Positions 1,482-26,392 of a stretch of DNA of 64,000 nucleotides are shown one piece after another. The translations under genes and the position numbers were made by a program. Position 1 is the stretch's first letter. Every line of letters begins with the position of its first letter. Source of the DNA: Gemmatimonadota bacterium (lineage in GTDB: Bacteria > Gemmatimonadota > Gemmatimonadetes > Gemmatimonadales > GWC2-71-9); the NCBI GenBank assembly GCA_003222135.1, contig QHUM01000038.1, forward strand, positions 34,038 to 98,037, read 5' to 3'. The notes beneath the pieces are model-generated. The model was given only the letters and a program-made list of their open reading frames with translations. It was not told the origin of the DNA and made no database searches.

Positions 1482-2492
1482 TCAGCCGAGGATCTGATCG
1501 ATGGTCTGGAGCTCGGCGGCGTCGAACCGGCGGGTCCCGAGCGCTGCCACCGCGTCGTCGATGTGGCCAGACCGGCTGGCGCCGATCAGCGCCGACGTCA
1601 CCTCGGGGTGACGCAGCACCCAGGCCAACGCCATCTGGGCCAGCGTCTGCCCGCGGGCGCGAGCAAGTTCGTTCAGGCGGCGAACCTTCGCCAAGACGTC
1701 CTCCGTCACCTCGTCGCGCTTGAGGAAGCCGTGCGGCTTGGCCGCGCGAGAATCCGCGGGAATGCCCGAGAGATAACGGTCGGTGAGCAGGCCCTGCGCC
1801 AGCGGCGAGAACACGATGCACCCGATCCCCTGCTCACGCAGTGCGGCGAGCAGGCCCTGCTCGATCCAGCGGTTGAACAGGCTGTACTTGGGCTGATGGA
1901 TAAGGCACGGGGTCCCCAGGGCACGCAGGATCCCCGCGGCCTCGCGGGTCTGCTCCGGTGTGTAGGACGAGATCCCGGCGTACAGGGCCCGGCCGCTGCG
2001 CACGGCCTGATCGAGCGCGCCCAGGCTCTCTGCGAGCGGCGTCCGCGGGTCGGGGCGGTGATGATAGAAGATGTCGACGTACTCGAGCCCCATACGGCGC
2101 AGGCTCTGGTCGAGGCTCGCGAGCAGGTACTTGCGGGAGCCCCATTCGCCGTACGGCCCCGGCCACATGAGATATCCGGCCTTCGTCGAAATGATCAGCT
2201 CGTCGCGATACCGCGCTAGATCGCGCCGCAGGATCCGGCCGAACGTCGTTTCCGCCGACCCGGGCGGGGGACCGTAGTTATTCGCCAGATCGAAGTGAGT
2301 GATCCCCAGATCGAACGCGCGCAGCACCATGGCGCGCGAATTACTGAACCGATCGACGCCGCCGAAGTTGTGCCACAGCCCGAGCGAGATGGCGGGGAGA
2401 TCGACGCCGCTCTTCCCGCAGCGCTGGTAGGCAATCGTATCGTATCGGGTCTCGGCTGGGTGATAGGGCATAATGGGACGCATAAGCTGCAT
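1482..2492 (-). CDS. yghZ: aldo/keto reductase, YghZ/Gpr-like (L-glyceraldehyde-3-phosphate reductase family)
   Basis: Near full-length collinear similarity to E. coli YghZ as I remember it (CGKSG..LPAISLGLWHNFG, GITHFDLANNYGPPPGSAE, ELIISTKAGY..WPGPYG..GSRKYLLASLDQSLRRMGLEYVDIFYHHR). Start chosen at ATG 2492; ATG 2483 or 2471 are also possible. Confidence 0.85.
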   Translation of the reverse strand: MQLMRPIMPYHPAETRYDTIAYQRCGKSGVDLPAISLGLWHNFGGVDRFSNSRAMVLRAFDLGITHFDLANNYGPPPGSAETTFGRILRRDLARYRDELIISTKAGYLMWPGPYGEWGSRKYLLASLDQSLRRMGLEYVDIFYHHRPDPRTPLAESLGALDQAVRSGRALYAGISSYTPEQTREAAGILRALGTPCLIHQPKYSLFNRWIEQGLLAALREQGIGCIVFSPLAQGLLTDRYLSGIPADSRAAKPHGFLKRDEVTEDVLAKVRRLNELARARGQTLAQMALAWVLRHPEVTSALIGASRSGHIDDAVAALGTRRFDAAELQTIDQILG

Positions 2493-2551
2493 CCTGCATT
2501 GCACTCTCCGCCAGGACGGATAGGTTAGCGGTCGCTCCGAACCGGGTCCCC

Positions 2552-7689: not shown

Positions 7690-7909
7690 GCTGACGGTCC
7701 CCCCTCTGGGAGCCCCCACGGTTGGGGGCTCGGGCGCCTGGATTTGCACAGAGCGTACCCGCGACGCCTGCTGTTCTAACATATTTCGTGGGAAGCGGTT
7801 AGGTGATAGAATTAGGGCGCTCCAAAGTGACTGGCGGGCCCCATTCGTGTGCGAATCGGGACGCGACGCCCCGAAATGGGGCGTGTCCCACCTGACACCG
7901 GAGGAATTC

Positions 7910-9727
7910 ATGCTTCGTGTCGTCGTCCTGATCGCCGGCCTGCTCCCGGCCGCTCTCCCCCTGCCCGTCGGCGCACAACAGGCCGCCGACACGGCGTACG
8001 CCAAGAGCGAGGCCAACATCCCTATGCGCGATGGCGTCAAGCTGCGGGTCGTCATCCTCGCGCCGCACGCCGCCAGGCCGCTCCCGATTCTGTTGCAGCG
8101 CACGCCCTACAACGCCAACGGCGCGATCGGCTTCGCGCGCCGTGCCAAGGAGCTCGGCCTGGACGGTTACATCATCGTCTTCGGCGACATCCGCGGTCGC
8201 TTCCGCTCGGAGGGCCGGTTCGACATGAATCGGCCGCCGCGCGCGGGCACGCCGGGGATCGACGAGAGCACCGACGCGTACGATACGATCGACTGGCTCG
8301 TGAAGAACGTGCCGAACAACAATGGTAAGGTCGGCACGTTCGGCGTCTCGTACCCTGGGTGGCTCACGGCGGTCACGGGCATAGGCCCGCACCCCGCCCT
8401 CAAGGCGATCTCACCCCAGGCGCCGATGGGCGACACCTGGATGGGCGACGACTTCTTTCACCAGGGGGCGTTCCGGCTGAGCTACGGCACCGAGTACACC
8501 TGGAGCATGGAATCGTCATCCGACGAAAGCGAAGAGCCGTCCCCATCCCGCTACGACCTGTACGAGTGGTATCGGTCGTTTCCGACCCTGGACGCGCTCG
8601 CCCGGACCGTCCGCGCCGACCGGTGGCCGAGCTGGCACCGGTTCTCGGAGCACCCGGCGTACGACTCGGTGTGGCAGGCCCGCGCGCTGCCGCGCTACAT
8701 GGGCCATGCGACCGTGCCGACGCTCGTGGTGGGCGGGTGGTGGGACCAGGAGGATGAGTACGGTCCGCTCGCCCATTACGCCGCGCTCGAGCGCAGCGAC
8801 ACCGCGCGGCTCGCGCATCTGGTGATGGGTCCGTGGTATCACGGGCAATGGTCCGGCGATTCCGGCACGGCGCTGGGCAATGTCCGCTTCGGCCGTGCGA
8901 CCGGTGTCGAGTACCGGGAGCTCCAGTCCCGCTGGTTCGGCTACTGGCTCAAGGGCGAAGGAGACGGGCGGTTCCCCGCAGCGTGGTTATTCGACGCCGG
9001 CACCGACAGCTGGCGCACGTTCGACACGTGGCCCCCGGCGAACGCCGTACGCCGCCGGCTGTACTTGCGCGCCGACGGCGCGCTGTCATTCGACCCGCCG
9101 ACCGCGGCGGACGCGAGCGACCAGTTCACCTCCGATCCGGCGCATCCCGTGCCCTACCGCCCGCGACCGGTCGAGCTCACCTATTCGCGCACTTCACGCT
9201 GGCGGCGCTGGGAAACGGAGGATCAGCGCTTCGTGGACGGGCGGCCGGACGTGCTCACCTGGCAGACACCGCCGCTCACCGAAGACGTGACCGTCGCAGG
9301 CGATGTCGTCGCGCACCTCTACGCCTCGACCACAGGCAGTGATGCCGACTGGGTGGCGAAGCTCATCGACGTCTATCCCGATACCGTGCCGGGCCGACCG
9401 GAGATGCAGGGCTACGAACTGATGGTGACGGGAGACATCATGCGCGGCCGGTACCGCAAGAGTTGGGAGCGGCCGGAGGGGATCCCGGCGAACGCGATCC
9501 AGCCGTTCACGGTGGACCTGCACCAGCAGGCGTACACGTTCCTGAAGGGCCACCGCATCATGGTGCAGGTGCAGAGCACCTGGTTCCCGCTGTACGACCG
9601 TAATCCGCAGAGCTTCGTGCCCAACATCTTTCGGGCGCGCGCGGAGGACTACAAGGCCCGCGTGCATCGGGTGTACCGCACGACCCAGTATCCGTCGAAC
9701 GTCGAGATCGAGGCGCTTCCCCGCTAA
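7910..9727 (+). CDS. CocE/NonD family hydrolase (S15 X-Pro dipeptidyl-peptidase-like), secreted
   Basis: GGAGGA RBS before ATG 7910. Signal peptide MLRVVVLIAGLLPAALPLPVGAQQ. Nucleophile block GTFGVSYPGW. C-terminal jelly-roll block (RIMVQVQSTWFPLYDRNPQ). Confidence 0.8.
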   Translation: MLRVVVLIAGLLPAALPLPVGAQQAADTAYAKSEANIPMRDGVKLRVVILAPHAARPLPILLQRTPYNANGAIGFARRAKELGLDGYIIVFGDIRGRFRSEGRFDMNRPPRAGTPGIDESTDAYDTIDWLVKNVPNNNGKVGTFGVSYPGWLTAVTGIGPHPALKAISPQAPMGDTWMGDDFFHQGAFRLSYGTEYTWSMESSSDESEEPSPSRYDLYEWYRSFPTLDALARTVRADRWPSWHRFSEHPAYDSVWQARALPRYMGHATVPTLVVGGWWDQEDEYGPLAHYAALERSDTARLAHLVMGPWYHGQWSGDSGTALGNVRFGRATGVEYRELQSRWFGYWLKGEGDGRFPAAWLFDAGTDSWRTFDTWPPANAVRRRLYLRADGALSFDPPTAADASDQFTSDPAHPVPYRPRPVELTYSRTSRWRRWETEDQRFVDGRPDVLTWQTPPLTEDVTVAGDVVAHLYASTTGSDADWVAKLIDVYPDTVPGRPEMQGYELMVTGDIMRGRYRKSWERPEGIPANAIQPFTVDLHQQAYTFLKGHRIMVQVQSTWFPLYDRNPQSFVPNIFRARAEDYKARVHRVYRTTQYPSNVEIEALPR

Positions 9728-13706: not shown

Positions 13707-14930
13707 CTAGAACCGGTCCAGCACCCGGTCCCGGCGGCGCGCCAGCCAGTAGAGCGGCACGCCCAGCAGCAGCGTCGCTCCCGCGGCCACCCACGCATCT
13801 CCAATGCCGCGTGCCCGGGCGAGCCAGCCCCAGCCTGTCTGCCCCGCCACCCCACCCAAATTGGCGAAGAACGAATCGAGCGAGATGATGGTGGCCCGCT
13901 GGGCCGACGGGATGTGCGCATTCAGGTATCCCTGCTTCACCGGCAGCATGACGCCGAGCGCGATTCCGTACACCAGATACAGGGCCACCACAACGTAAAA
14001 GTTGCGTAGCAACCCGCACAGCACGATGGCGATCGCCTGTACGACGACGGATGCAATCAGCAGCGCGGTGCGCGTCCGCAGCACGCGCGCGAGGGGTGTC
14101 ACGAGGACATTGCCGGCGATCAGTGTCAGCGAGGTGAGGGCGGCGATCGCGCCCGCCACCCACACCGCTTCGTGGCCGAGCAGATCCAGGAAATACCGCT
14201 GCCAGCTGTAGAACCCGAAGATCATGAAGCTCACCGACACGAGCGAGCCCAGCATCACCGGCCGCACTACGGGATGGTGTAAGCCGTTGCGCATCCCTTC
14301 GACGAACACGCGGCGCATCTCGGCGGGCACGCGGTCCAGGGAGAGCGCGCGCCGGGTGAACCCGGGCTCCGGCATCGCGCGCCAGGCGAGCACGAACAAC
14401 GGTACGACGATGGCGGCGCGGACCAGATACGGCAGGGCCAGATCGACCTGGCCCAGCAGACCCCCGCCGAGCGTGCCGGCCAGCATCGCCGCCCCGAACG
14501 CCATCTGACCGCGTGCGAAGACCGGCTCGAGCGGCTCGGTGTAGCCCGTCGCCTTGAGCGCGTCCACCAGCCAGGCGTCGACCGCCCCCGTGTAGAACGT
14601 GTAGCCGAGCCCGAGCAGCACCGACACCCACGCGAACGGCCAGAACCCCCAGCCGAACCGTGCGATCGCCACGTACAGGAGCGTGGTGCCGAACAGGGTG
14701 GCGAGGCACAAGAGCAGTGACACGCGCCGGCCGAGCGTGTCCGCCACCACGCCGGTGGGGACCTCGAACAGCACGTTCCCCAGCGTGAACGCCGCGTTCG
14801 TCATCATCACCTGGAAGATGTCGAGGCCGGCGTGGAGCTTGAACAGCGTGTCGATACCCCAGATGAGGGACATCGCCAGGTTGAACAGCCCCGTGATGAG
14901 GAGATACGTGCGAATGATACGCGCGCTCAC
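13707..14930 (-). CDS. MFS transporter
   Basis: 12-TM-like profile and the MFS loop motif VADTLGRRVSLLL. GTG 14930 overlaps the upstream gene stop (GTGA); the track start at 14951 is also possible. Confidence 0.8.
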   Translation of the reverse strand: MSARIIRTYLLITGLFNLAMSLIWGIDTLFKLHAGLDIFQVMMTNAAFTLGNVLFEVPTGVVADTLGRRVSLLLCLATLFGTTLLYVAIARFGWGFWPFAWVSVLLGLGYTFYTGAVDAWLVDALKATGYTEPLEPVFARGQMAFGAAMLAGTLGGGLLGQVDLALPYLVRAAIVVPLFVLAWRAMPEPGFTRRALSLDRVPAEMRRVFVEGMRNGLHHPVVRPVMLGSLVSVSFMIFGFYSWQRYFLDLLGHEAVWVAGAIAALTSLTLIAGNVLVTPLARVLRTRTALLIASVVVQAIAIVLCGLLRNFYVVVALYLVYGIALGVMLPVKQGYLNAHIPSAQRATIISLDSFFANLGGVAGQTGWGWLARARGIGDAWVAAGATLLLGVPLYWLARRRDRVLDRF

Positions 14931-15802
14931 GGCACATGTGCCTCGAGCCACTCGTGCGCGATCGTCCGGATGTCGCGGTGCTCCACGTCCGCGGCCGCGT
15001 TGAGACGGCGCATCTCGTCGTCGGAAATCTTGCCTCCCAGCTCCTCCAGGGCGCGCGCGAGCCCCGCATAGCGCTCCAGCGTCCCGGCCCGCACCACCGG
15101 CGCCGCTTCGTAGGGCGGGAAGTAGTGCCTGTCGTCCTCGAGCACGGCCAGGTGCAGCGCCGCGATCTGTCCGTCGGTGGAGTTTCCGGCGATCACGTCC
15201 ACCTTGCGGTCGGCCAGGGCGCGGTAGGTGAGGCCCAGGTCCATCGCCGTCGGCGGCGCGGCGAAGTGGAGTCCGTAGACCCGGGACAGCCCCGCGAAGC
15301 CGTCGGCGCGCTCGAGGAACTCGTAGCCGAAGCCCGCGTGCCAGCGTGGCGCCACCCGGCTCAGGTCCGACATGACCTTCAGCCCGTAGCGCTCAGCGTC
15401 GGCGGCGCGCACCAGGATCGCGAATGTGTTGTCGAACCCGAACGCCGTGAGCCAGCGCAGCCCGAACTGCCGGCTGTACTCGCTCGCGACCTGGCGGAAC
15501 ACACTGTCGCGCTCGACGACGGGCGGGTGCTTGAGCACGGCCGTGAACGCGGTGCCCGAGTACTCGACGTACAGATCGATCTGCCCCGCCAGGATCGCTT
15601 GGTGACACACGAACGTCCCACCCAAGTGCAGCCGGCGCTCCACCGGGACGTGCAGCCGGCGCTCGATCTGTTGCGCCACGATTTCGGCCAGGAGATCGGA
15701 TTCGGTGAAGTTTTTCGCGCCGACGATGATCCGGTCGTGCCGCCCACAGGCGCCGAGCAACAACGCCAGGGTGAGGAGCACCCGACCGCCTATCGCTGCC
15801 AT
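14927..15802 (-). CDS. glycine betaine/choline-type ABC transporter substrate-binding lipoprotein (OpuAC/OsmF-like)
   Basis: Lipobox LLLGAC. Resembles the OpuAC family (KNFTESDLLAEI, DLYVEYSGTA, NTFAILV, MDLGLTYRALADRKVDVIAGNSTDGQI). Confidence 0.8.
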   Translation of the reverse strand: MAAIGGRVLLTLALLLGACGRHDRIIVGAKNFTESDLLAEIVAQQIERRLHVPVERRLHLGGTFVCHQAILAGQIDLYVEYSGTAFTAVLKHPPVVERDSVFRQVASEYSRQFGLRWLTAFGFDNTFAILVRAADAERYGLKVMSDLSRVAPRWHAGFGYEFLERADGFAGLSRVYGLHFAAPPTAMDLGLTYRALADRKVDVIAGNSTDGQIAALHLAVLEDDRHYFPPYEAAPVVRAGTLERYAGLARALEELGGKISDDEMRRLNAAADVEHRDIRTIAHEWLEAHVP

Positions 15803-16416
15803 GCCAGCCTCCGCTGGGCGATCCCCAGCACCGCGTCCGCCGCCAGGGCGAGCAGCGCGGCGGGCAACGCCCCCGCCATGATCAGCGTATCATCCACAGT
15901 CGCCACCCCGCGAAAGATGTAGACACCGAGCCCGCCTGCCCCGATCGCCGCGCCGATCGTCGCCACGCCTACGCTCACCACCGTCGCGACGCGGATGCCG
16001 GCGAGGATCACGCCGGCGGCGAGCGGCAGCTCGACCAGCCGCAACAGCTCGCCGTCTGTCATGCCCATCCCCCGGCCCGCCTCGCGCACCGCCGGGTCCA
16101 CGCCCGCGATCCCCGTATACGTGTTGCGGATGATCGGCAGCAGCGCGTACAGAATCAGCGCCGTGATCGCCGTCCACGCTCCGATGCCGAAGAACGGGAT
16201 CAGAAATCCGAGGAGCGCGAGACTGGGAATCGTCTGGAACACGTTGGCGAGGCCGAGCACCGGCGCCCGCCATGCCGGGCGGCGCGTGAGCGCGATGCCG
16301 AGCGGGACGCCGACGACGATCGCCGCGCCGGTCGAGACCACGACCAGGTAGACGTGCTGCCAGGTCAGTGCCAGCAGCTCGACCGAGTTGCGGGAGTAGA
16401 AGGACAGGAGGCTCAT
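15790..16416 (-). CDS. ABC transporter permease (osmoprotectant/betaine type)
   Basis: BPD_transp_1-type permease with EAA-like loop (REAGRGMGMTDGELLRLVELPLA). Overlaps the SBP gene by 13 nt. Confidence 0.8.
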   Translation of the reverse strand: MSLLSFYSRNSVELLALTWQHVYLVVVSTGAAIVVGVPLGIALTRRPAWRAPVLGLANVFQTIPSLALLGFLIPFFGIGAWTAITALILYALLPIIRNTYTGIAGVDPAVREAGRGMGMTDGELLRLVELPLAAGVILAGIRVATVVSVGVATIGAAIGAGGLGVYIFRGVATVDDTLIMAGALPAALLALAADAVLGIAQRRLAWQR

Positions 16417-16442: not shown

Positions 16443-17222
16443 CTAAAAGGACTTCCTCGGGCCCTGCGGGCCCTCAGTCGCCGGCCCGGGGTCAACCGCA
16501 CTCATGAACGCCACGGCCTCCGGCTGGGTCGACCCCCGAAACTCTTCCGGCGTCCCCAGGAACAGGAGGCGCCCCTCGTGCATCAGCCCGATCCGGGTAC
16601 CGAGCAGCAAACCCTCGCGCACGTCGTGCGTCACGAACACCATGCCCTTGCCCAGCCTGCCCTCGAGGCCGCGAAACTCGCGCTGCAGCTCGACGCGCGT
16701 GATGGGGTCGAGCGCGCCGAACGGCTCATCGAGCAACAGCAGCGGCGGATCGGCGGCGAGCGCACGGGCCACGCCGACGCGCTGGCGTTGCCCTCCCGAC
16801 AACTGATGCGGGTAGCGGCTCAGGAATGCGGCGGGGTCGAGGCCCACGAGGGCGAGGAGCTCCCGCACCCGGGCGGCGATCCGGTCGGCCGGCCACCGCT
16901 CCAGCCGCGGCACGAGCCCGATGTTCTGCGCCACGGTGAAGTGGGGAAACAGCCCGACCTCCTGGATCACGTAGCCGATGCGCCGCCGCAGGCGCGTCGG
17001 CTCGAGGGCGGCCGTGGGCTCACCCGCCACCAGCACTTCCCCGGCGGTCGGCTCGAGCAAGCGGTTGATGAGCTTCAGGGTGGTCGTCTTGCCGGACCCG
17101 CTGCGCCCCAGCAAAACGAGGGTCTCGCCAGGACCCACGGTAAAGGATACGTTCTGCACCAGAGTGCGGCCGTCGCCGGGCAGCGCGTAGGCCAGCCCCC
17201 GCACATCGACGGCGGCGGTCAC
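16443..17222 (-). CDS. ABC transporter ATP-binding protein (osmoprotectant/betaine type, no CBS domains)
   Basis: Walker A GRSGSGKTT, signature LSGGQRQRVGVARAL, Walker B LLLLDEP, H-loop FVTHD. GTG start overlaps the upstream stop (GTGA at 17219..17222). Confidence 0.85.
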   Translation of the reverse strand: MTAAVDVRGLAYALPGDGRTLVQNVSFTVGPGETLVLLGRSGSGKTTTLKLINRLLEPTAGEVLVAGEPTAALEPTRLRRRIGYVIQEVGLFPHFTVAQNIGLVPRLERWPADRIAARVRELLALVGLDPAAFLSRYPHQLSGGQRQRVGVARALAADPPLLLLDEPFGALDPITRVELQREFRGLEGRLGKGMVFVTHDVREGLLLGTRIGLMHEGRLLFLGTPEEFRGSTQPEAVAFMSAVDPGPATEGPQGPRKSF

Positions 17223-18157
17223 GCGGGGCCCGCGAGGACCATCAAGAAGCGGGCATCGTCGCTCGTGCCGCGCCAGCGTACCGCGAGGCCGGCGTCGGTC
17301 AGAATGCGAACGAACGTGTCGGCGTCGTACTTGTAAGAATGATTCAGGTCGAGACGCTCTCCGGCGGGGAGCGCCATTGTCTCGCCGCCCAGCCCGGCTC
17401 GTACCTCGCGGGTCGCGCGGAAGTGCTTGGCGAGCGGGTGCAGGCCAGGGAGCCGTGCGTCCACCCGGTCTTCGAACACGAGCTCGCCGTCCTGCTCGGT
17501 GATGCCGACAGCCACGAGCGGCGCCCAGGCGAAGCGGCGGTTGAGCGGATTGTCGTACCCGGCCACGGTGTGCTGGGCAGCGTAAATCTCGCCGTCCACG
17601 ATGAGCAAGTCGTGCGGCCGCAGCAGCGCGCGCAGCTGGCGCGCGGCGGCGAGCGGGTCGAAGGCACCAAGCGTGTTGCCGAGCAGGAGGACGAGTCGCG
17701 GCGGCGTTGCGGGGTCCGGGGCGAGGGCCGCCAGGTGGTCAGAGCGCGTGAAATCGGCCTTGATCCCCTGGGCCGGCAGGCCCGCCCCCATCGCTCCCTG
17801 GCACGCTAACTCGAGCAGGGCCAGGCTCGTATCGACCGGAACGTAGGAGACGTGAACTCCGTGGCGGCTCAGCGCGTTAAGCAAAAGTAGGTCTTTGTCC
17901 CCCTGTCCTGAGCCCAGGCTCACGACCTCGAGAGAGCCGGGCTGGACGAAGCCGGCGAGCCGGTCGGCGGATTGAACAATCAGAGAGCGCGAGCGGACGT
18001 AGTTGCGGTAGGCGCCGTCTGAGCAGAGGGCGAGCCAGGCGCGCACGGAGAGTGGGAACCAGTAGAAGAACTTCTCGTCGAAGCGGCGTGCCTGAAAGGC
18101 CGCGACGAATTCGTCGGCGAGAGCGTTCTCGGTCAGCAGGGATTGGATCGCGATCAT
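17219..18157 (-). CDS. EgtD-like SAM-dependent methyltransferase (histidine N-alpha-methyltransferase / Methyltransf_33 family)
   Basis: Collinear with my recollection of mycobacterial EgtD: KFFYW, VSLGSGQGDKDLLLLNAL (EgtD LGSGTSEKTRMLL), YVPVDTS (FIPFDVD), RLVLLLGNTLGAF (VVFLGSTIGN), GYDNPLNRRF, C-terminal YKYDADTFVRILTDAGL. Substrate not predictable. Confidence 0.6.
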   Translation of the reverse strand: MIAIQSLLTENALADEFVAAFQARRFDEKFFYWFPLSVRAWLALCSDGAYRNYVRSRSLIVQSADRLAGFVQPGSLEVVSLGSGQGDKDLLLLNALSRHGVHVSYVPVDTSLALLELACQGAMGAGLPAQGIKADFTRSDHLAALAPDPATPPRLVLLLGNTLGAFDPLAAARQLRALLRPHDLLIVDGEIYAAQHTVAGYDNPLNRRFAWAPLVAVGITEQDGELVFEDRVDARLPGLHPLAKHFRATREVRAGLGGETMALPAGERLDLNHSYKYDADTFVRILTDAGLAVRWRGTSDDARFLMVLAGPA

Positions 18158-18173
18158 AGCTCAGAGTTATCGG

Positions 18174-18203
18174 TTGACGGGTGTGACGGCAACCCGTTAT
18201 GGT
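18174..18203 (+). promoter_or_regulatory. candidate sigma70-type promoter for the peptide/MNIO operon (TTGACG-N18-TATGGT)
   Basis: TTGACG at 18174..18179 and TATGGT at 18198..18203, in the 92-nt divergent intergenic region. A small inverted repeat, ACGGGT (18177..18182) / ACCCGT (18192..18197), overlaps the spacer. Pattern match only. Confidence 0.3.
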
Positions 18204-18249
18204 AGTCGAACCTGCCGTCGTTCTCTTTTCCCAAGCAGGGAGGAAACCA

Positions 18250-18342
18250 ATGCAGATCGTCGAAACCGCAGAACTGGTGCCCAGCTGTCATCGTCCCGAG
18301 ATCGTCGAGACGAGCGAGCTGGAGCCCACCTGCCACTCCTAA
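18250..18342 (+). CDS. 30-aa tandem-repeat Cys-His peptide, candidate RiPP precursor (MQIVETAELVPSCHRPEIVETSELEPTCHS)
   Basis: Hand-translated; below the ORF-track length cutoff. SD GGGAGGA at 18238..18244 lies 5 nt before ATG 18250. TAA stop at 18340..18342. GC3 is 24/30. There are two 14-15-aa repeats, each ending P-[ST]-C-H. Directly upstream of the AKR, DUF692 and partner genes. Confidence 0.55.
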   Translation: MQIVETAELVPSCHRPEIVETSELEPTCHS

Positions 18343-18356
18343 GGGAGATCGGCTGG

Positions 18357-19475
18357 ATGTGCGAAGGGGCCCGGACCGATGTCGGGCCCCTTTCGCGTTT
18401 CCTGGGCGTCGCAGCGCGCCTGGGGTTCGGGGGGTGGGCGGTGGGCGGGACCGGCTGGGGGGCGGCGGGAGAGGACAGCGAGCGCGCCGCCGCGATCCGG
18501 CACGCGGTCGAGCGCGGGGTCACCTTCTTCGATACGGCACCCACGTACGGCGGAGGCGAGTCCGAGCGGCTGTTGGGTCGCGTGCTCAAGGCCGATCGGG
18601 AGCGCGTCGCGATCGCCACGAAGGTCGGCCCGCGCGACGATCCGCGCGCCTCGCTCGAAGACTCGCTGCGCCGCCTGAACACCGACTACGTCGACCTCGT
18701 CCAGCTGCACGAGACTCTGGACCGCTGGGAGTGGCAGCTCGAAAAGCTCCATGCCCTGCAGCTCGCCGGGAAAGCACTCGCCGTGGGGCTGTGCAACGCC
18801 ACGCACCGGCAGCTCGAGCGGGCGCTTACCCTCGCGCCGCTCGCGACCTATCAGGCCCCGTACAACCTGTTCGACCGGGACGTCGAGGAGCGAACGCTAC
18901 CGCTGTGCCGCGATCGCCGCCTCGCCTTCCTTGCCTACCGACCACTCGCGGCCGGTCTGCTCGGGGGCAAGTACGCGGCGCCGCCGCAGTTCGCCGAGGG
19001 CGACCACCGCCGCCAGATCTACTGGTTCAAGGGGAAGGAGTTCGAGCGGCGCCGCGCCGTGATCGACCGGCTGCGACCCATTGCGCAGGGTCAAGAGATA
19101 TCGCTCATCGCGCTGGCGCTGGGTTGGCTGCGCTCGCAGCCGGGCGTGAGCATCGTCCTGGTCGGAGCCAGGAACGGCGCGCAGGTGGACGAGACCTTCG
19201 TCCCCGACCCCCGACCCCTGACCCCCGAGGTGTGCCGTGCGATCGACGCCATCGTCGCCGACGTCTTCCGCCCCGCACGCTCCACGCCGCAGCTCGGCGA
19301 CGCCGCCCGGACGTGGGGCGAGCGGGAGCGGTTCATCGCTGCGCGGCTCGACGGGACCACGCGCTACGAGGCAATCGCGGCCGAGTGGACGGACACGGGC
19401 GACAAGCCGATGATCGCGGCCCAGGTGAAGGTGTTCGTGGACCAGCTCGTCGAACAGGGACTTGCTGAGGTCTGA
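18357..19475 (+). CDS. aldo/keto reductase with about 65-aa C-terminal PqqD/RRE-like extension
   Basis: GGGAG RBS before ATG 18357. AKR blocks (GVTFFDTAPTYGGGESERLLG, RERVAIATKVG, YVDLVQLHE, LAYRPLAAGLL, SIVLVGARN). The tail (ERFIAARLDGTTRYEAIAAEW...AAQVKVFVDQLVEQGL) resembles the helical half of PqqD-like peptide-binding domains. The upstream part of ORF 18174.. is rejected. Confidence 0.8.
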   Translation: MCEGARTDVGPLSRFLGVAARLGFGGWAVGGTGWGAAGEDSERAAAIRHAVERGVTFFDTAPTYGGGESERLLGRVLKADRERVAIATKVGPRDDPRASLEDSLRRLNTDYVDLVQLHETLDRWEWQLEKLHALQLAGKALAVGLCNATHRQLERALTLAPLATYQAPYNLFDRDVEERTLPLCRDRRLAFLAYRPLAAGLLGGKYAAPPQFAEGDHRRQIYWFKGKEFERRRAVIDRLRPIAQGQEISLIALALGWLRSQPGVSIVLVGARNGAQVDETFVPDPRPLTPEVCRAIDAIVADVFRPARSTPQLGDAARTWGERERFIAARLDGTTRYEAIAAEWTDTGDKPMIAAQVKVFVDQLVEQGLAEV

Positions 19476-19481
19476 GGTCTG

Positions 19482-20270
19482 ATGTCTGGCATCTCGGTTG
19501 GCACCTTTTACAATCCGCACCTCGGAGCGGAGCTCGCGCAGGCCGACGGCATCGACCATCTCGCAATGGCGGACCCGCCGGCGCCGCACGACCCCCACTG
19601 GCCCGCGATCAAGCAGCGCTATACCCTGCTGCTGCACGACTACCTGGGCCAGCTGTCGGAGCCGCTCGACGAGCGCTCCATCGCCCGCGCCCGTTCGCTC
19701 GCCGAGCTGTACCGCACGCCGTGGGTGGCCGAGCATTTCCAGTGCCTCCACACCGAGGACGGCCGCTACAATCTCAATTACGTCTTCCCGCCGCTCTACA
19801 CCGAGGAATTCCTGCAGCGCTTCGTCACCAATGCCAAAGCGCTGCAGGTGCGGCTCGACCAGCCGCTCGTGATGGAGAACATCCCCGGATTCTTCGACGT
19901 CAAGGCGAGCCAGCTGCCCGAGCCGGTGTGGCTGCGGCGCTTCTTCGAGGCGACCGGAGCCGGCTTTCTGCTCGACCTGCCGCACGTCTGGCTCGAGGCG
20001 CACTACCGCGCGGTGAAGCCCGCGGTGTGGCTGGCGGAGTTCCCCCTGGAGCGCGTCGTCGAGCTGCACGTGGCGGGCGTGGTTCAAGACGACGACCTGC
20101 AGGGGCCGTGGATCGCGCCCGCCGCCCCCTCGGACGAGATGCTCGACTTCCTGGCGCTCGCGGTGAGCCGTTGCCCGCGCGCGCAGGCGGTGACGTTCGA
20201 CGCGTTCTCGCCGTCACTCACGCTCGAGGTGCTGCTCTCGAGCGTCGAGCGGATCCGCGCGGCCTTGTGA
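19482..20270 (+). CDS. DUF692 family protein (MbnB/TglH/BufB-like multinuclear non-heme iron oxidase, MNIO)
   Basis: GAGG RBS 5 nt before ATG 19482. Family blocks are collinear with DUF692 proteins as I remember them: WVAEHFQC (FFSEHLSY), VFPPLYTEE (LLPMPFTEE), LVMENIPGFF (ISLENTSYY), FLLDLPHVWLEA (IHLDVNNIYVNA), VVELHVAG (YIHIAGH). Confidence 0.75.
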   Translation: MSGISVGTFYNPHLGAELAQADGIDHLAMADPPAPHDPHWPAIKQRYTLLLHDYLGQLSEPLDERSIARARSLAELYRTPWVAEHFQCLHTEDGRYNLNYVFPPLYTEEFLQRFVTNAKALQVRLDQPLVMENIPGFFDVKASQLPEPVWLRRFFEATGAGFLLDLPHVWLEAHYRAVKPAVWLAEFPLERVVELHVAGVVQDDDLQGPWIAPAAPSDEMLDFLALAVSRCPRAQAVTFDAFSPSLTLEVLLSSVERIRAAL

Positions 20271-21043
20271 GCGACCGCGAGATACAGGATTCCGTCATCC
20301 GGGCGCTCGCGGACGCGCCCTATCGCGCGTCCCCCGCGTGGCGCGGTCTGGCACTCGCCGATCCGACGCGCCTCGAGCGGTTCGCGCGGTTCCTCGCGCG
20401 CCACTTCTATCACGAGCGGCTCGTCCACTTTTTCAAGTACTCGCGTGCCCTGGCGAGGGTCACGGGCCGGCACCCCGAGGCGGTGCTCCAGGGCGGCGGC
20501 TTCGATGCGCTGCTCCCCAAGGCGGTGCTGGGCAGCCGCGACACGGCGCGCGGCGTGGCGGCGCTCGCCGTGCACCACGTCCACAGCGCGAGCGCCTCGC
20601 GTGCGATCCCCTATCTCAGCGACCTGCTCGAGTACGAGCAGGCCATGATGATCGTGGAGGCAGGCCCCCGAGTGTGGCGGGACGACGGCGCAGAACAAGG
20701 AGCCGGGAGCGGGGAGCGGTCCCTTCCGGAGACCGTTCAAGGAACGGTGCTCTTGGATCTCGCCTACGACCTGCCCGCCGTGCTTCCCAAGCTGCTGCAG
20801 CCGTGGACCGAGGTGCCCCCAGCGTCGCCGCGGCGTGTAAAGCTGCTCGTGGCGCGCTCTGCGCATGGCCGCGTCACGGTGGCCCGCGCCGATGCGGCGG
20901 TCGCGAGCGTGGTGGAACTCGCCGACGGGCGGAAGACGCTGCCCGAGCTGGCGCGTGAGGCCGGCTTGCGGACGGCCGACCTGGAGGCGACACTGGCCGG
21001 GCTCGCCGACCTGGGCGCCGTACGGTTCGGGACCGGAAGCTGA
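20267..21043 (+). CDS. MNIO partner protein candidate (DUF2063-like N-domain, PqqD/RRE-like winged-helix C-terminus)
   Basis: GTG 20267 overlaps the DUF692 stop (GTGA). Block IPYLSDLLEYEQAMM resembles the DUF2063 motif PYLADVARLEWA. The C-terminus VVELADGRKTLPELAREAGLRTADLEATLAGLADLG is PqqD-like. Confidence 0.5.
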   Translation: MSDREIQDSVIRALADAPYRASPAWRGLALADPTRLERFARFLARHFYHERLVHFFKYSRALARVTGRHPEAVLQGGGFDALLPKAVLGSRDTARGVAALAVHHVHSASASRAIPYLSDLLEYEQAMMIVEAGPRVWRDDGAEQGAGSGERSLPETVQGTVLLDLAYDLPAVLPKLLQPWTEVPPASPRRVKLLVARSAHGRVTVARADAAVASVVELADGRKTLPELAREAGLRTADLEATLAGLADLGAVRFGTGS

Positions 21044-21057
21044 CGGGAGGTCATCAC

Positions 21058-23265
21058 ATGGCTCGCGCGCTTTCTCGCAGGACGTTCCTCCAGGCCGGTG
21101 CCGCCGTCGGAGGTGGCTTGCTGCTGGGCTTCACGCTACCCGCCCGCGGGCGCGGGCGGGGGCGCGCCGACCGATTTGCCCCCAATGCCTTCATCCGGAT
21201 CGATCGCGACGGCCGGGTGACGTTGATCATGCACAAGGTCGAGATGGGCCAGGGGACGTACACGTCCATGCCGATGCTGCTCGCCGAGGAGCTCGAGGTG
21301 GACTTGGCCCAGGTGCGGCTCGAGCACGCGCCGCCCGACGACGCGCTGTACGCCGAACCGCTGTTCGGTGTCCAGGAAACCGGCGGCTCGACGTCGGTGC
21401 GCGGCAACTTCGAGCCGCTGCGCCGCGCCGGCGCCGCCGCGCGTACGTTGCTGGTGGCCGCCGCGGCGCAAACGTGGCAGGTCGCGGCGACGTCGTGCCG
21501 CGCGGAGCGGGGCGAGGTGATCCATGGGCCCACGGGACGCCGGCTCGGCTACGGCGCGCTCGTGGACAAAGCGGCGACCTTGCCGGTGCCGCCCACCCCG
21601 CCGCTCAAGGACCCCAAGGACTGGACGCTCATCGGCACGCCCGCCAAACGCCTCGACAGCCCCGACAAGGTCAACGGCACCGCGCTGTTCGGGATCGACG
21701 TGCGGCTCCCCGGCATGAAGGTGGCGACGCTGGCAGCGTGTCCCGTGTTCGGTGGCAAGCTGGCGAGCGTCGACGACGCGAAGGCCCGGGCGGTCCCCGG
21801 CGTGCAGCAGGTGGTGCGGCTCGACGACGCCGTGGCCGTGGTCGCCGACCACATGTGGGCGGCGAAGCAGGGCCTCGCGGCGCTCGCCATCCGGTGGGAC
21901 GAGGGCCCGAACGCCCGGCTCGACACCGCCGATATCGTGCAGCAGCTCGCGGCGGCGTCACAGCGGTCGGGAGTGGTCGCGCGCAACGCGGGCGACGCCG
22001 CCCGAGCCATGGCGGGGGCCGCCCGGAAGGTGGAAGCGATCTACGAGCAGCCGTTCCTGGCGCACGCCACGATGGAGCCGGTCAACTGCACGGTCCACGT
22101 CCGGCCGGACGGCTGCGACATCTGGGTGGGGACCCAGGTGCCGACGTTCACGCGCACCGCCGCCGCGCAGCTGACGGGTCTGCCACGCGACCGCGTCCAG
22201 GTGCACAACCATCTCCTGGGCGGCGGATTCGGCCGGCGGCTCGAGGTGGACTTCGTCCGCCGGGCGGTGCGAATCGCGATGCAGGTCACGGGCCCGGTGA
22301 AAGTGGTGTGGACCCGCGAGGAAGACATCCAGCAGGACATGTACCGGCCGTACTACTACGACCGCATCGCCGCCGGCCTGGACGAGCGCGGCCGGCCGGT
22401 CGCCTGGACCCATCGCGTCACCGGCTCGTCGATCATGGCGCGGGTGACGCGCGAACTGTTCCCCAAGACGCTACGCGTCATGCGGGCGGCCGGGCTGCAC
22501 CAGCTCGTCGCGATGGTCAAGGGTCTCGACGTGGACGCGGTGGAAGGCGCGGCGGAGCCGCCGTATACCCTGCCCAACATCCGCGTCGAATACGTGCGTC
22601 AGGAGCCGCCCGGGATCGCGACCGCGTTCTGGCGCGGCGTGGGGCCGACGCACAACATCTTCGTGGTCGAGAGCTTCATCGACGAGCTCGCCGCAGCGAC
22701 GCGACAGGACCCGTTCCAGTACCGCCGCGCGCTGCTCGACCAGGCGCCGCGCGCGAAGGCGGTGCTCGAGCTCGCCGCGCTCCAGGCCGGCTGGGGGCGC
22801 CCGCTCGCGCCGGGAAGCGGGCGCGGGATCTCGCTGCTACACGCCTTTGGGAGCTACCTCGCTCAGGTCGCCGAGGTGTCGGTTTCCAAGCAAGGGGAGG
22901 TCCGGGTCGCGCGGGTCGTCTGCGCGGTGGATTGCGGCATCGTCGTCAACCCCGACACCGTCAAGGCGCAGATCGAGAGCGGGGTCATCTTCGGGATCTC
23001 GGCCGTCTTGTGGGGCGAGATCACCTTCAAGGATGGCCGCGTCGAGCAGCACAATTTCAACGATTACCGGGTGCTGCGCATCAACCAGGCCCCGGTGATC
23101 GAAGTCCATCTCGTGAAGAGCACGGAGGCGCCGGGGGGAATCGGCGAGCCGGGAACGTCGGCCGTGATGCCGGCGGTCGCCAACGCCATCTTCGCGGCGA
23201 CCGGCAAGCGAATCCGCAAACTGCCGGTGAAGGACCAGTTGCGAGAGCCGGCGCCGACTCCCTAG
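21058..23265 (+). CDS. molybdopterin-binding oxidoreductase large subunit (xanthine dehydrogenase family, IorB / membrane-bound aldehyde dehydrogenase-like) with Tat signal
   Basis: GGGAGG RBS. Twin-arginine signal [20 protein letters not shown]. IorB-type blocks ([76 protein letters not shown]). Confidence 0.85.
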
Positions 23266-24098
23266 ATCTGGGTCTCCGCGGTCGCCAAGGCCGGTGCGGC
23301 GCCGCCGTCCGTTGCGCTCTGACCGATGGTCAACCAGTCGGTGCGCATCCTGTCCCACTCCTGGATCGACAGGCCGTGCCCCTCGAAGAACGAGCGGATG
23401 CGCGCGGCGTTCATCCCCACGATCTCCTCGAGCACCGGTACGAGCACGCTGAGCGCGTCGTCACCGATGATGGTGCGGCGCGCGATCTGGGCGACGAGCT
23501 TCGCGTCGGACGCGGCGATGGTGAAGCCGTCCCGGCGGTTGACGTGTAGCATCACATGGATGTCGGAGCTGCCGTCCCCCACATAGACGATCCGGTCGGA
23601 GCCCACCTGCAGCGCCGCCTGCAGCTCGTCCAGCACGGCCACCTTACCGAACCCGGCGGCGACACGCACGATCGAGCGGATCTCCCCGGACGTGGCGTCG
23701 TAATCGAACCGCGTCCCATAGATGTGGTCGGGCGGGACGATGCCTTCCAAAGCCGACTGAATCACTTCTTCGGGGGCCGCCGAGATCACGTAGAACGCGA
23801 ACCGGTAGCCCTCGATCCCGTCCTGCAGCAGGCGGACGAGGAGCGGAATGTTCTGCTTCAGCCGGATACGCTTCCCGGCCTCTATCAGGTGCTCCCGGCG
23901 CACGGCGCGATAGTCCGGATCGTGCCGCAACAGGTACGCGAGCTCGCCCCCTTGCTGGATGAGGTTGGTACGCGACAATCCGGCGACCTTCTCACGAAAC
24001 CCCGGGATGCCCACGATTTCGGAGAGGATGATCCCCGAATCGTTGAAGCTCAGCGTCTGGTCGAAATCGCTCGCCAGCAGATATTCCTTCGCCATCAT
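23262..24098 (-). CDS. HAD-superfamily hydrolase (subfamily IB, phosphoserine-phosphatase-like)
   Basis: Motif I DFDQT, motif [10 protein letters not shown]. Start at MMAKE (24098) preceded by GAGGAGA. Shares a palindromic CTAG convergent stop with the upstream + gene. Confidence 0.7.
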
Positions 24099-24134
24099 CT
24101 TGGTTGTCTCCTCACTCGGACCCCACACACGACG

Positions 24135-24433: not shown

Positions 24434-25630
24434 CTATCTTGGCGAGGACTCGAGCAGCAGCCGTACGCGCCCCAGCAGCTCGCTCGCCGTCCAGGGCTTC
24501 GTGACGAACGCGACCGCAGCATCGAGGCCGACGGTTTTGCGGTAGTTCGGTGCGGGAAAGCCGCTCATGAACAGCACCTTGATGGTCGCCGACTCTCGCC
24601 GGATGGATTCGTACAGCTGGAAGCCGCTGAGCTTTGGCATGATCACGTCGGTGAGCACGAGGTGCAGCTCGGCGCGGTGCGCGCGATACGTCGCGAGTCC
24701 TTGCTCGCCATTCATCGCCGCGAGCACGCGGTAGCCGACTTTCTCGAGCAGTCCCTGCGCCACCGAGCGCATGGTGGGGTCGTCCTCCACCAGCAAGATC
24801 GCTTCGCTGCCCCCCGGCAGGTTCTCTTCGGCGGCCTCGAGCGGCATTCGCCGATAGACAGCGGGAAAGTACACCTTCGCCGTCGTCCCCTGACCGGTTT
24901 CGCTGTACAGGTGCACGAACCCTTTGTGTTGCTTGACGAGGCCGTACACCATGGCCATGCCGAGGCCGGTGCCGACCCCCAACGCCTTGGTCGTGAAGAA
25001 CGGCTCGAACACGCGCGCCAGCGTCGCGGCGTTCATTCCCGTGCCGGTGTCGCTGACCGCGACGCTGACGTACGAGCCGGGCTCGATCCACGCGTGCAGC
25101 GGACGGTCTGCCGCGCCGAGGCGCGCCCGCCGGACCTCGACGTGCAGCGTGCCTCCCTTCGGCATGGCGTCTCGCGCGTTGGTGACGAGGTTCATCAGGA
25201 TCTGTCGCACTTCCGCCGGATCGGCTTCGACGACGCCGCCTACGTCGTCCGCTTCGAACTGGATCTCGATGTTGCCCGGAAGGTCGCGGCGCAGCGTGTC
25301 CAGGATCTCCCGTACGTATTCGGTGAGGCTGAGCGGCTGCAGGTCCAGCGCCTTGTGACGGCTGAAGCCGAGGAGCTTGTGGGCCAGCTCCGCGCCGCGC
25401 TGAGCCGTTTCCTTCAGATCGTCGAGGTCACGGTTCGGGGGCGACGACTGGGTGAGCGCGGCGGCCCGCGTCAGAATGGCGCCGAGGAGCTCGCTGAATT
25501 GCTGGGCAATCGCCCCCGTCAGGCGGCCGATCGTCTCCATCTTCTCGGCCTGCAGCAGGGCCCGCTCGCGCGCGCGCTCCCCCCCGACGTCCTCGGCCGC
25601 CATCGCACCCCCTCGAGAGCTTGGAGCCAT
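24434..25630 (-). CDS. hybrid sensor kinase-like protein (DHp + HATPase_c + C-terminal receiver) with degenerate H-box
   Basis: N-box LMNLVTNARDAM, G1 VSDTGTGM, G2 GTGLGMAMV, receiver ILLVEDD...LVLTDVIMPKLSG. At the H-box position the sequence is GAIAQQFSELL, not the AHDFNNLL type. No sensory domain. Confidence 0.75.
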   Translation of the reverse strand: MAPSSRGGAMAAEDVGGERARERALLQAEKMETIGRLTGAIAQQFSELLGAILTRAAALTQSSPPNRDLDDLKETAQRGAELAHKLLGFSRHKALDLQPLSLTEYVREILDTLRRDLPGNIEIQFEADDVGGVVEADPAEVRQILMNLVTNARDAMPKGGTLHVEVRRARLGAADRPLHAWIEPGSYVSVAVSDTGTGMNAATLARVFEPFFTTKALGVGTGLGMAMVYGLVKQHKGFVHLYSETGQGTTAKVYFPAVYRRMPLEAAEENLPGGSEAILLVEDDPTMRSVAQGLLEKVGYRVLAAMNGEQGLATYRAHRAELHLVLTDVIMPKLSGFQLYESIRRESATIKVLFMSGFPAPNYRKTVGLDAAVAFVTKPWTASELLGRVRLLLESSPR

Positions 25631-25735
25631 ATAGCCCGGGCCCCGGGAGGCGTCAAGCGTGGGCCCCACCCGATCCGCGCGCGCGCGCGCGCCACTTGTT
25701 ATGTTGGGTACCTCCTGTGCGCGAGGCGTCTCCCG

Positions 25736-26392
25736 ATGAGTAAGCAGCATCGCCCCTTTCCGCTGACAGGGAGCCCGCTCGTCGCCGCGCTCCTGGTCCT
25801 CTTCATCTTGGCCGGGATCGCCTGCGGGTCACACCGCGTGCTTCTCCCCCCGCGGCTCAATCTGTCGCCGTACGGACAGATCGGACTCGTCACCTTCACA
25901 GCCGAGAATGCGAAGGGCTCGCTGCACGAGTTTGCCACGCAACGGTTCTCGGAGTACGTGCTGGCCGCCCAGACCGGCATCGAGGTGCTGGAGCTCGGCG
26001 CAGCCGACTCGGTGCTGCGACGCACCCACGCCTCGGAGCTTGGTCCTCGGGCGGCGCAGGCGCTCGGAGGGGAGGGCGGCGTTCCGGTCGTGTTCTTCGG
26101 CCACCTCAAGGTTTCTAACGTGAAGCCGAGCGGTAGCCTCGCCGGCCTGAGTCTGCCACGCGTGGAGGCTACGGTCTCGGCGGAGCTCTCGGTGGAGCTG
26201 CTGTCCACCAAGTCCGGCGGCACGCTGTGGCGCTCCAGCGCCGTCGCGAGCGAGAAGGTCGGCGGCCTCGCCCTGGTCGGCGGCGAGCCGGTCTTCTCCG
26301 CCAAGGACCCCAACAGCGCCTACGGGCAGCTCGTCAATCGCCTGGTTTACGCGGTCACCTACGACATGCGCTCGACGTGGGTGAAGCAATAG
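25736..26392 (+). CDS. lipoprotein, unknown function
   Basis: ATG 25736. Lipobox signal LVLFILAGIAC. The upstream 358 codons of ORF 24662.. are antisense to the kinase and rejected. Confidence 0.6.
   Translation: MSKQHRPFPLTGSPLVAALLVLFILAGIACGSHRVLLPPRLNLSPYGQIGLVTFTAENAKGSLHEFATQRFSEYVLAAQTGIEVLELGAADSVLRRTHASELGPRAAQALGGEGGVPVVFFGHLKVSNVKPSGSLAGLSLPRVEATVSAELSVELLSTKSGGTLWRSSAVASEKVGGLALVGGEPVFSAKDPNSAYGQLVNRLVYAVTYDMRSTWVKQ

Follow-up and report, generated by a model that had tools for sequence, protein, structure and literature searches.

A leaderless Cys-His repeat peptide encoded beside a DUF692-family oxidase: a candidate modified-peptide pathway conserved in soil bacteria of three phyla

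We analysed a stretch of 64,000 nucleotides from a Gemmatimonadota bacterium (contig QHUM01000038.1, positions 34,038 to 98,037; hereafter the window), in which a 93-nt open reading frame (ORF) for a peptide of 30 residues is followed by the genes of an aldo/keto reductase (AKR), a multinuclear non-heme iron oxidase (MNIO, DUF692 family) and a candidate MNIO partner protein, and is preceded by a divergently oriented methyltransferase gene (Table 1). The original prediction, made from the letters of the window, had read the first four of these as a candidate for an undescribed pathway to a peptide made by ribosomes and modified after translation (RiPP). Its description of the locus was confirmed in the sequence, including the small ORF, its Shine-Dalgarno sequence and the close packing of the genes: 14 nt separate the peptide gene from the AKR gene and 6 nt the AKR gene from the MNIO gene, and the MNIO and partner genes overlap by 4 nt. 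Related loci were collected by scanning one genome per species for MNIO homologues, with ORFs in the GC-rich loci chosen by tblastn and by the GC content at the third codon position. This gave 80 loci from Gemmatimonadales, Gemmatimonadaceae, Actinomycetota and Terriglobales, with MNIO identities from 93% down to 59%. The cluster is conserved across three soil bacterial phyla, represented by the Gemmatimonadota, Actinomycetota and Terriglobales loci, and we consider it likely that it is a conserved, uncharacterised MNIO-type RiPP pathway with the 30-residue peptide as its precursor.

The peptide gene translates to MQIVETAELVPSCHRPEIVETSELEPTCHS, in which two 12-residue units, IVETAELVPSCH and IVETSELEPTCH, follow each other without a leader. 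The gene is easily overlooked because it lies in a different frame within a longer mechanical ORF (18174..19475). Its GC contents at codon positions 1, 2 and 3 (0.63/0.43/0.80) are typical of coding sequence in the host genome (69% GC), as had been predicted, and the GGAGG motif upstream of it is kept in the orthologues while its flanks diverge. The 61 orthologues with two repeats comprise 51 distinct DNA sequences that encode 25 distinct proteins. Their variable sites are distributed over the three codon positions as 13/8/25, and the ratio of nonsynonymous to synonymous substitution rates (dN/dS, Nei-Gojobori) is 0.19. Purifying selection acts on the peptide, and the small ORF is a real gene. 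An alternative start at 18199, which would give a product of 47 residues, was rejected because the upstream in-frame stretch is unconserved and the Shine-Dalgarno sequence serves the ATG at 18250.

The 56 distinct units follow the consensus [IVL][VIL][ED]-x-x-E-L-x-P-[TS]-C-H, with the Pro, Cys and His invariant in all 56. The number of units differs between lineages: two in Gemmatimonadales (30 residues), three in some Actinomycetota (39 residues) and in Terriglobales (46 residues), and four, over about 57 to 65 residues, in Gemmatimonadaceae and in a single actinomycete. The absence of a leader follows from the position of the first unit, which begins at the Met or within five residues of it. 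The peptide opens directly with an acidic repeat unit; a Sec signal peptide, a DUF2282 region and an EGKCG motif are all absent. At the other end, the Terriglobales peptides stop exactly at the His and the others one residue after it. In the window, the two units share 9 of 12 residues and 26 of 36 bases, with the differences at synonymous sites, indicating that it is the protein sequence of the repeat that is maintained.

The peptide is encoded upstream of the MNIO gene in 73 of the 80 loci, always directly before either the MNIO gene or the AKR-MNIO pair; in the remaining seven the contig breaks off upstream, at 0.2 to 1.7 kb from the MNIO gene. The proposed neighbourhood check on orthologous MNIO genes thus found a P-[ST]-C-H repeat peptide upstream of them in three phyla, with a variable number of repeats. 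Among 1.84 billion representative proteins, a search found 29 clusters, each carrying two to four copies of the 12-residue unit. Gene calls for the peptide exist independently in NCBI, JGI and ENA under the annotation 'hypothetical protein'; 314 contigs carry exactly the peptide sequence of the window and 847 a close variant of it, and three variants together account for >1,400 soil metagenome contigs. No Pfam or NCBIfam model matched the peptide variants. The peptide is unnamed rather than unseen: public gene callers already list the gene. The earlier description of the pathway as undescribed holds within Pfam, NCBIfam and the literature searched.

The oxidase, which had been assigned to DUF692 from a handful of collinear sequence blocks, matched PF05114 with E = 6.7e-26 (91.5 bits vs a cutoff of 25). 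Its closest solved relatives are TglH (8hci, E = 1e-9) and a DUF692 protein of Haemophilus somnus (3bww, E = 1e-8). In TglH, Fe1 and Fe2 are held by His71, His107, Glu151, Asp184, His216 and Glu258 (PMC10880893). H52, H85, E132, D165 and H196 of the window's MNIO align with the first five of these ligands and are invariant in 10 orthologues, which accounts for five of the six Fe1/Fe2 ligand positions; the equivalent of Glu258 falls beyond the alignment, and the invariant D240 is a candidate for it. The two computational checks proposed with the prediction, on domains and on gene neighbourhoods, both support its core. Against the curated NCBIfam models the MNIO scored 102.9 bits for ApyH (cutoff 400), 83.9 bits for BufB (cutoff 310) and 50.1 bits for HvfB (cutoff 360), and no protein of the cluster matched the curated MbnB or MbnC models. 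Judged by these scores, all far below the respective cutoffs, the MNIO lies outside every curated MNIO subfamily.

The protein encoded after the MNIO had been described as DUF2063-like with a PqqD-like C-terminus. PF09836 (DUF2063) did not match it significantly, nor did PF05402 (PqqD) or any other Pfam domain, and public databases assign no domain to it either. The NCBIfam model of ApyI matched weakly (E = 6e-4; 19.2 bits vs a cutoff of 200), and PF22106 (NGO1945_C) was weakly matched by 12 of 20 partner orthologues (best E = 6.9e-5). The AlphaFold2 model of the protein (predicted local distance difference test score, pLDDT, 80.5; predicted template modelling score, pTM, 0.75) consists of a helical N-terminal domain, a disordered linker and a C-terminal winged helix of three strands followed by three helices. 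A search of the Protein Data Bank (PDB) with the sequence profile retrieved winged-helix regulators at the C-terminus only. With the model, the top three Foldseek matches in the PDB were TglI, twice (8hi7_A and 8hci_A; prob 1.00), and NGO1945 (3dee; prob 0.99), the prototype of DUF2063. Because these are the three best fold matches, we assign the product as an MNIO partner, and the modelled fold indicates that it is of the TglI/NGO1945 type. The predicted role of the third gene was therefore upheld by fold, and its membership of PF09836 was not.

The AKR matched PF00248 with E = 5e-57, and its catalytic Asp-Tyr-Lys-His tetrad (D59/Y64/K89/H118) is conserved across about 60 orthologues. The C-terminal tail, which had been likened to a RiPP recognition element (RRE), is also conserved in the orthologues and forms a winged-helix-like bundle in an alignment-based model (pLDDT 84). 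Its match to PF05402 (PqqD) is weak (E = 0.089; 13.6 bits vs a cutoff of 23.4), and so are its fold matches, which fall among generic winged helices: PqqD (3g2b) with template modelling (TM) scores of 0.57/0.49, and TbiB1 (5v1u), an RRE from lasso-peptide biosynthesis, with 0.54/0.50. An hhalign comparison of the AKR tail with the partner tail gave a probability of 43% and E = 2.5e-4. What stands of the prediction is the reductase and a conserved winged-helix tail of generic type, for which a function as an RRE is plausible. The AKR gene is present in 66 of the 73 loci; it is absent from two Gemmatimonadales loci and all four Terriglobales loci, and one Gemmatimonadaceae locus retains a remnant. 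Since it is missing from 7 of the 73, we regard the AKR as an accessory tailoring enzyme.

The cluster reaches further than had been predicted. The peptide, AKR, MNIO and partner genes had been included correctly, and the EgtD-like methyltransferase and the transporters linked to it had been overlooked. The methyltransferase, an EgtD/EasF-like enzyme dependent on S-adenosylmethionine (SAM), is encoded next to the peptide in 71 of the 73 loci, the other two being cut by a contig end. It is 60% identical in Actinomycetota and 39-42% identical in Terriglobales, where the AKR is absent, and it belongs to the cluster more constantly than the AKR does. Among solved structures, those of EgtD are closest to it (E = 1e-7), and in an alignment to EgtD the equivalents of the carboxylate-binding residues Tyr206 and Ser284 are invariant among the orthologues. 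Other EgtD residues are altered: Asn166, which binds the alpha-amine, is replaced by Ala or Gly; Glu282, which binds the imidazole, by Asn or Ser; and Thr213 by Asn. Because the enzyme scores 63.9 bits against the EgtD equivalog TIGR03438 (cutoff 290.9 bits) and its Asn166 and Glu282 positions are changed, we regard it not as a bona fide EgtD but as a member of the wider PF10017 family. The conserved core of the cluster consists of the divergent methyltransferase gene on one side and the peptide, MNIO and partner genes on the other, and its left boundary should take in the methyltransferase gene.

In Gemmatimonadales, the methyltransferase gene is the first of an operon that continues with a ProV-type ATPase, a permease and an OpuAC-type binding protein, which together make up an ATP-binding cassette (ABC) transporter, and with a pump of the major facilitator superfamily (MFS); independent gene calls agree on this arrangement. 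The order of the transport genes is kept across Gemmatimonadales, and the genes are absent from the Actinomycetota and Terriglobales loci. Two loci (L015 and L027), in which the ABC genes were relocated yet remained within the locus, argue for a functional link between the transporter and the cluster. The nearest solved relatives of the binding protein (OpuBC, OpuCC and ProX) have choline, betaine or carnitine as their ligands; EgtUC, which binds ergothioneine, also matches it (E = 1e-43), but the choline/betaine binders are closer.

Between the methyltransferase and peptide genes lies a block of about 40 nt that 61 Gemmatimonadales loci share with at least 80% conservation and that is not conserved in the loci of the other phyla. 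It contains a promoter-like TTGACG-18-TATGGT (18174..18203), found in a scan that gave two sites where 0.2 were expected. An imperfect palindrome, GGTTGACG-N7-CGGCAACC, lies in and around the promoter-like spacer and is possibly an operator, that is, a candidate binding site for a regulator. No Rfam element matched between 17000 and 22000.

Table 1. Genes and sequence elements at the repeat-peptide locus (positions in the window)
Feature	Position	Strand	Basis and remarks
Precursor peptide gene (30 aa, 93 nt)	18250..18342	+	Conservation, dN/dS, independent gene calls
Shine-Dalgarno sequence GGGAGGA	18238..18244	+	Read from the sequence; 5-nt spacer to the ATG
Aldo/keto reductase with a winged-helix tail of ~70 residues (tail about 19269..19472)	18357..19475	+	PF00248
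MNIO (DUF692) oxidase	19482..20270	+	PF05114, conserved Fe1/Fe2 ligand positions
MNIO partner protein (predicted)	20267..21043	+	AlphaFold2 model, Foldseek PDB matches, weak ApyI match
EgtD/EasF-like SAM methyltransferase	17219..18157	-	PF10017, E = 5.5e-23; divergent from the peptide operon
Conserved intergenic block (~40 nt) between the methyltransferase and peptide genes	18163..18203		Promoter scan, conservation
ProV-type ATPase	16443..17222	-	Pfam, NCBIfam and PDB matches
ABC permease	15790..16416	-	Pfam, NCBIfam and PDB matches
OpuAC-type binding protein	14927..15802	-	Pfam, NCBIfam and PDB matches
MFS pump	13707..14951	-	Pfam, NCBIfam and PDB matches

Several relatives carry additional genes within the locus. 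In L017 (6783..7988) and about 25 similar Gemmatimonadales loci, a 402-aa LssY_C protein (PF14067, E = 2.6e-40) is encoded between the MNIO and partner genes. In another subgroup, an alpha/beta hydrolase with a signal-like N-terminus (PF00561, with a further match to serine aminopeptidase S33) is encoded between the AKR and MNIO genes, as in L054 (4926..5984) and L049 (about 4920..5990), and may be a processing enzyme. In L014 the MNIO gene is instead followed by a gene for an unannotated 232-aa protein whose N-terminus is hydrophobic, and in the Gemmatimonadaceae loci L073 and L075 (e.g., 3724..4308 on the minus strand of L075) an extra gene of about 190 codons, apparently for a membrane protein, is inserted between the methyltransferase and the peptide. 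In the Terriglobales locus L080, a TonB-dependent receptor gene (2310..4532) adjoins the methyltransferase gene and an Fe/Mn superoxide dismutase gene (7829..8428) follows the partner gene. Upstream genes were examined in one further Terriglobales locus, L077, which does not show this arrangement, and L080 is the only related locus with an adjacent TonB receptor.

On the right side, a molybdopterin oxidoreductase gene (21058..23265) was rejected as a cluster member, as it adjoins the cluster in the closest relatives only. In these relatives, which are about 90% identical (e.g., L081, 11803..13010), genes for a 153-aa protein and a [2Fe-2S] small subunit separate the partner gene from the molybdopterin gene. 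Both genes are missing from the window, which lacks this 1.2 kb (at 21041..21058): the gene of the molybdenum cofactor subunit, which bears a twin-arginine translocation signal, starts 14 nt past the partner gene, and its iron-sulfur subunit is missing. Downstream of it, on the minus strand, genes for a HAD-IB phosphatase (23262..24128) and a hybrid histidine kinase/response regulator (24434..25750) form a pair that is also found in close relatives.

We compared the cluster with characterised MNIO systems. The aminopyruvatide system (ApyA/ApyH/ApyI) resembles it in having a small precursor without a signal peptide and a partner of non-DUF2063 type; ApyH is also the best curated model for the MNIO, aligning over its full length, and ApyI weakly matches the partner. 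However, ApyH oxidises a C-terminal Asp, whereas the peptide here presents an invariant P-[ST]-C-H in repeats; the P450 and the B12-radical SAM enzyme are absent, with an AKR and an EgtD-like methyltransferase instead; and the ApyH and ApyI scores are far under the equivalog cutoffs. TglHI of 3-thiaglutamate (pearlin) biosynthesis provides the closest solved MNIO by sequence and the closest solved partner fold, its Fe1/Fe2 ligands align with those proposed here, and its substrate is a Cys on a peptide. It differs in that a peptide aminoacyl-tRNA ligase is not among the neighbour genes identified here, the Cys of the repeat peptide is genetically encoded and mostly internal, the TglH Fe3 ligands D229 and H231 are unconserved, and the partner is 12% identical to TglI.

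The captophorins (bufferins, oxazolins, fontiphorin and bulbicupramide) are likewise built from short repeated Cys units in variable number; their EGKCG cassettes are modified one by one by an MNIO-partner pair, and the products bind copper (PMC13097082, PMC12538549). Captophorin precursors, however, carry Sec signal peptides and EGKCG or DUF2282, and are accompanied by DUF2063 (PME1) partners and often by DoxX. In the present cluster the signal peptide and PF09836 are absent, the unit has 12 residues and a His adjacent to the Cys, the tailoring genes are others, and the BufB and HvfB scores are far below the cutoffs. In the methanobactin system (MbnA/MbnB/MbnC), too, an MNIO and its partner act on Cys residues of a small ribosomal peptide, but MbnA has a leader and a core, and the cluster described here has a leaderless peptide, no curated MbnB or MbnC match and no Fe3 motif. 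A parallel with methanobactin had been drawn from the two Cys residues of the peptide, each with an adjacent His; the residues are as described, and the absence of the Fe3 motif makes methanobactin-like chemistry less certain than was implied.

A published survey of the MNIO landscape describes many precursor groups, none of which resembles the repeat peptide; its main text does not include Gemmatimonadota or Acidobacteriota, and its genome table is drawn from RefSeq (GCF). The same survey ties precursors without a signal peptide to a partner type other than DUF2063. In the literature on MNIOs with AKRs, EgtD-like enzymes, thiohistidine or these phyla, we found no description of the cluster, and no published report of an AKR or an EgtD-like methyltransferase in an MNIO pathway or of an AKR bearing an RRE, in agreement with the original prediction, which was aware of no AKR tailoring in MNIO clusters. 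By its sequence scores and the partner model, the system is an MNIO with a TglI/NGO1945-type partner, distinct from ApyHI, BufBC/HvfBC, MbnBC and TglHI. The precursor class and the tailoring set are new within MNIO-type RiPP pathways, and no curated family covers the cluster.

Very probably, the 30-residue peptide is what an undescribed natural product of the modified-peptide kind is made from. Its position and conservation, together with the fact that MNIOs are known to depend on such partners, argue that it is the substrate and that it would be processed unit by unit. Each unit probably brings its own recognition sequence in its acidic and hydrophobic front half (phi-phi-E-x-x-E-L) and is probably modified at its invariant P-[ST]-C-H end. 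The MNIO-partner complex would bind each unit and oxidise it with O2 at the di-iron site. Since Cys is the target of most known MNIO reactions (PMC12257519), the invariant Cys is the most likely target here, and the reaction would probably give a thioamide or a heterocycle with sulfur in it beside the invariant His. Such a group flanked by His may form an N,S metal-binding site, giving two to four sites per peptide, and we hypothesize, as the original prediction did, that the product binds metal. The EgtD-like methyltransferase would add methyl groups, and the NAD(P)H-dependent AKR, where present, would reduce a carbonyl arising from the oxidation, with its winged-helix tail possibly docking it on the peptide. 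In Gemmatimonadales, the MFS pump and the betaine-type ABC importer probably move the product.

Several points weigh against this interpretation. The link between the peptide and the enzymes rests on genomic association and selection, and all 80 loci come from metagenome-assembled genomes, from which the cluster members are solely known. The cluster lacks a conserved protease, a betaine-type binding protein is odd as an importer of a 30-residue peptide, and a Foldseek search of the PDB with the AKR tail returned no match at E <= 1e-3 and hence no significant match to an RRE. The third iron of TglH is held by Asp184, Asn187, Asp229 and His231 (PMC10880893), and the corresponding D-x-H motif is missing from the window's MNIO: D229 and H231 align with P209 and I211 in an invariant GPWIAP, and Asn187 aligns with the invariant H168. 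Membership of the MNIO family stands nonetheless, because the active, Asp-hydroxylating MNIOs PesH and PflD lack the motif as well. Finally, ApyH, the closest curated relative, acts on Asp, which suggests that the target may be a residue other than Cys. Because of the missing Fe3 motif, the Asp-directed relative and the AKR, which suggests a carbonyl intermediate, our confidence in the conversion of Cys to a thio-heterocycle or thioamide is only moderate. To our knowledge, the known Cys-modifying MNIO pathways reduce no carbonyl intermediate.

The same observations would fit an MNIO that spares the Cys and instead carries out a two-electron hydroxylation or related oxidation at the beta-carbon of His, at Glu or Asp, or at Pro, with the AKR interconverting the alcohol and the carbonyl. 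The Cys-His pair would then serve in its native state as a metal or redox site, or another enzyme would act on it. The D-x-H motif is absent as in the hydroxylating PesH and PflD, the model of the Asp-oxidising ApyH is the best curated hidden Markov model (HMM) for the MNIO, and an AKR suits alcohol/carbonyl chemistry. The Cys, however, is invariant in all 56 distinct units and is the residue found in most MNIO substrates, and the ApyH match falls far short of its cutoff (103 vs 400 bits). In addition, according to a 2026 preprint, a mixed-valent diiron cofactor alone suffices for thiooxazole formation, so that the loss of Fe3 is compatible with Cys chemistry. We consider an oxidation that leaves the Cys untouched to be rather unlikely.

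The Cys-His pair is also the substrate pair of the iron enzymes EgtB and OvoA. This raises the idea of a small molecule built on the peptide as a multi-copy scaffold, as in the pearlins: Cys and His would be joined or the sulfur moved to the imidazole, and the His product would be released, methylated to a betaine and imported. The outcome would be a ribosomal route to a thiohistidine resembling ergothioneine or ovothiol, recycled in Gemmatimonadales by the betaine-type ABC importer. Beyond the invariant Cys-His, this idea draws on the constant presence of an EgtD-family methyltransferase that keeps the Tyr206 and Ser284 equivalents, on the linked OpuAC-family binding protein with its EgtUC match (E = 1e-43), on peptide ends that consist of His or His plus one residue, and on the resemblance of the partner fold to TglI, which belongs to a scaffold-peptide pathway. 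It is opposed by the absence of a conserved protease or C-S lyase from the cluster, by the replacement of Asn166 by Ala/Gly and of Glu282 by Asn/Ser together with the low EgtD score (64 vs 291 bits), by the lack of the ABC genes in the Actinomycetota and Terriglobales clusters, and by the closer relationship of the binding protein to choline/betaine binders than to EgtUC. Furthermore, we know of no MNIO that forms a C-S bond to imidazole. We regard the scaffold explanation as improbable.

If the cluster were merely a member of the captophorin/bufferin-oxazolin or methanobactin classes that has diverged by sequence drift, the repeated short Cys units recalling EGKCG cassettes and the weak PF22106 matches of 12 of 20 partners would be accounted for. 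It is very improbable in view of the BufB (84 vs 310 bits) and HvfB (50 vs 360 bits) scores, the absence of PF09836, a Sec signal peptide, DUF2282 and EGKCG, the different accessory genes (EgtD-like methyltransferase and AKR), and the survey's pairing of precursors without signal peptides with a different partner type. That the small ORF is not a substrate at all, being an ORF arisen by chance, a leader peptide with a regulatory role or a peptide that binds metal unmodified, while the MNIO acts elsewhere, is hardly credible: the ORF has only 30 codons for amino acids and its modification is inferred, but its dN/dS of 0.19, its codon-position bias and conserved Shine-Dalgarno sequence, the retention of the unit across three phyla with varying copy number, its constant place directly upstream of the MNIO or AKR-MNIO genes and the absence of an Rfam element all speak for a substrate, and an attenuator peptide would not keep a 12-residue unit at the protein level.

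The interpretation that we favour, an MNIO-type RiPP pathway acting on the repeat peptide, describes a well-defined family, with a clear substrate motif, a leaderless precursor of self-contained units and two tailoring enzymes unreported in MNIO pathways. The peptide family is common in soil, and its loci all come from uncultured Gemmatimonadota, Actinomycetota and Terriglobales; lineages such as these, known from metagenome-assembled genomes only, are easily overlooked in an MNIO survey based on RefSeq. Should the thiohistidine/betaine scaffold explanation prove true, it would reveal both an MNIO reaction not seen before and, in soil bacteria that are abundant but uncultured, a new origin of this class of redox and metal-binding metabolites. 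The unusual peptide chemistry known from MNIOs is expanding fast: each new precursor class studied so far has yielded a new reaction or metallophore, and new chemistry is likely to come from this cluster.

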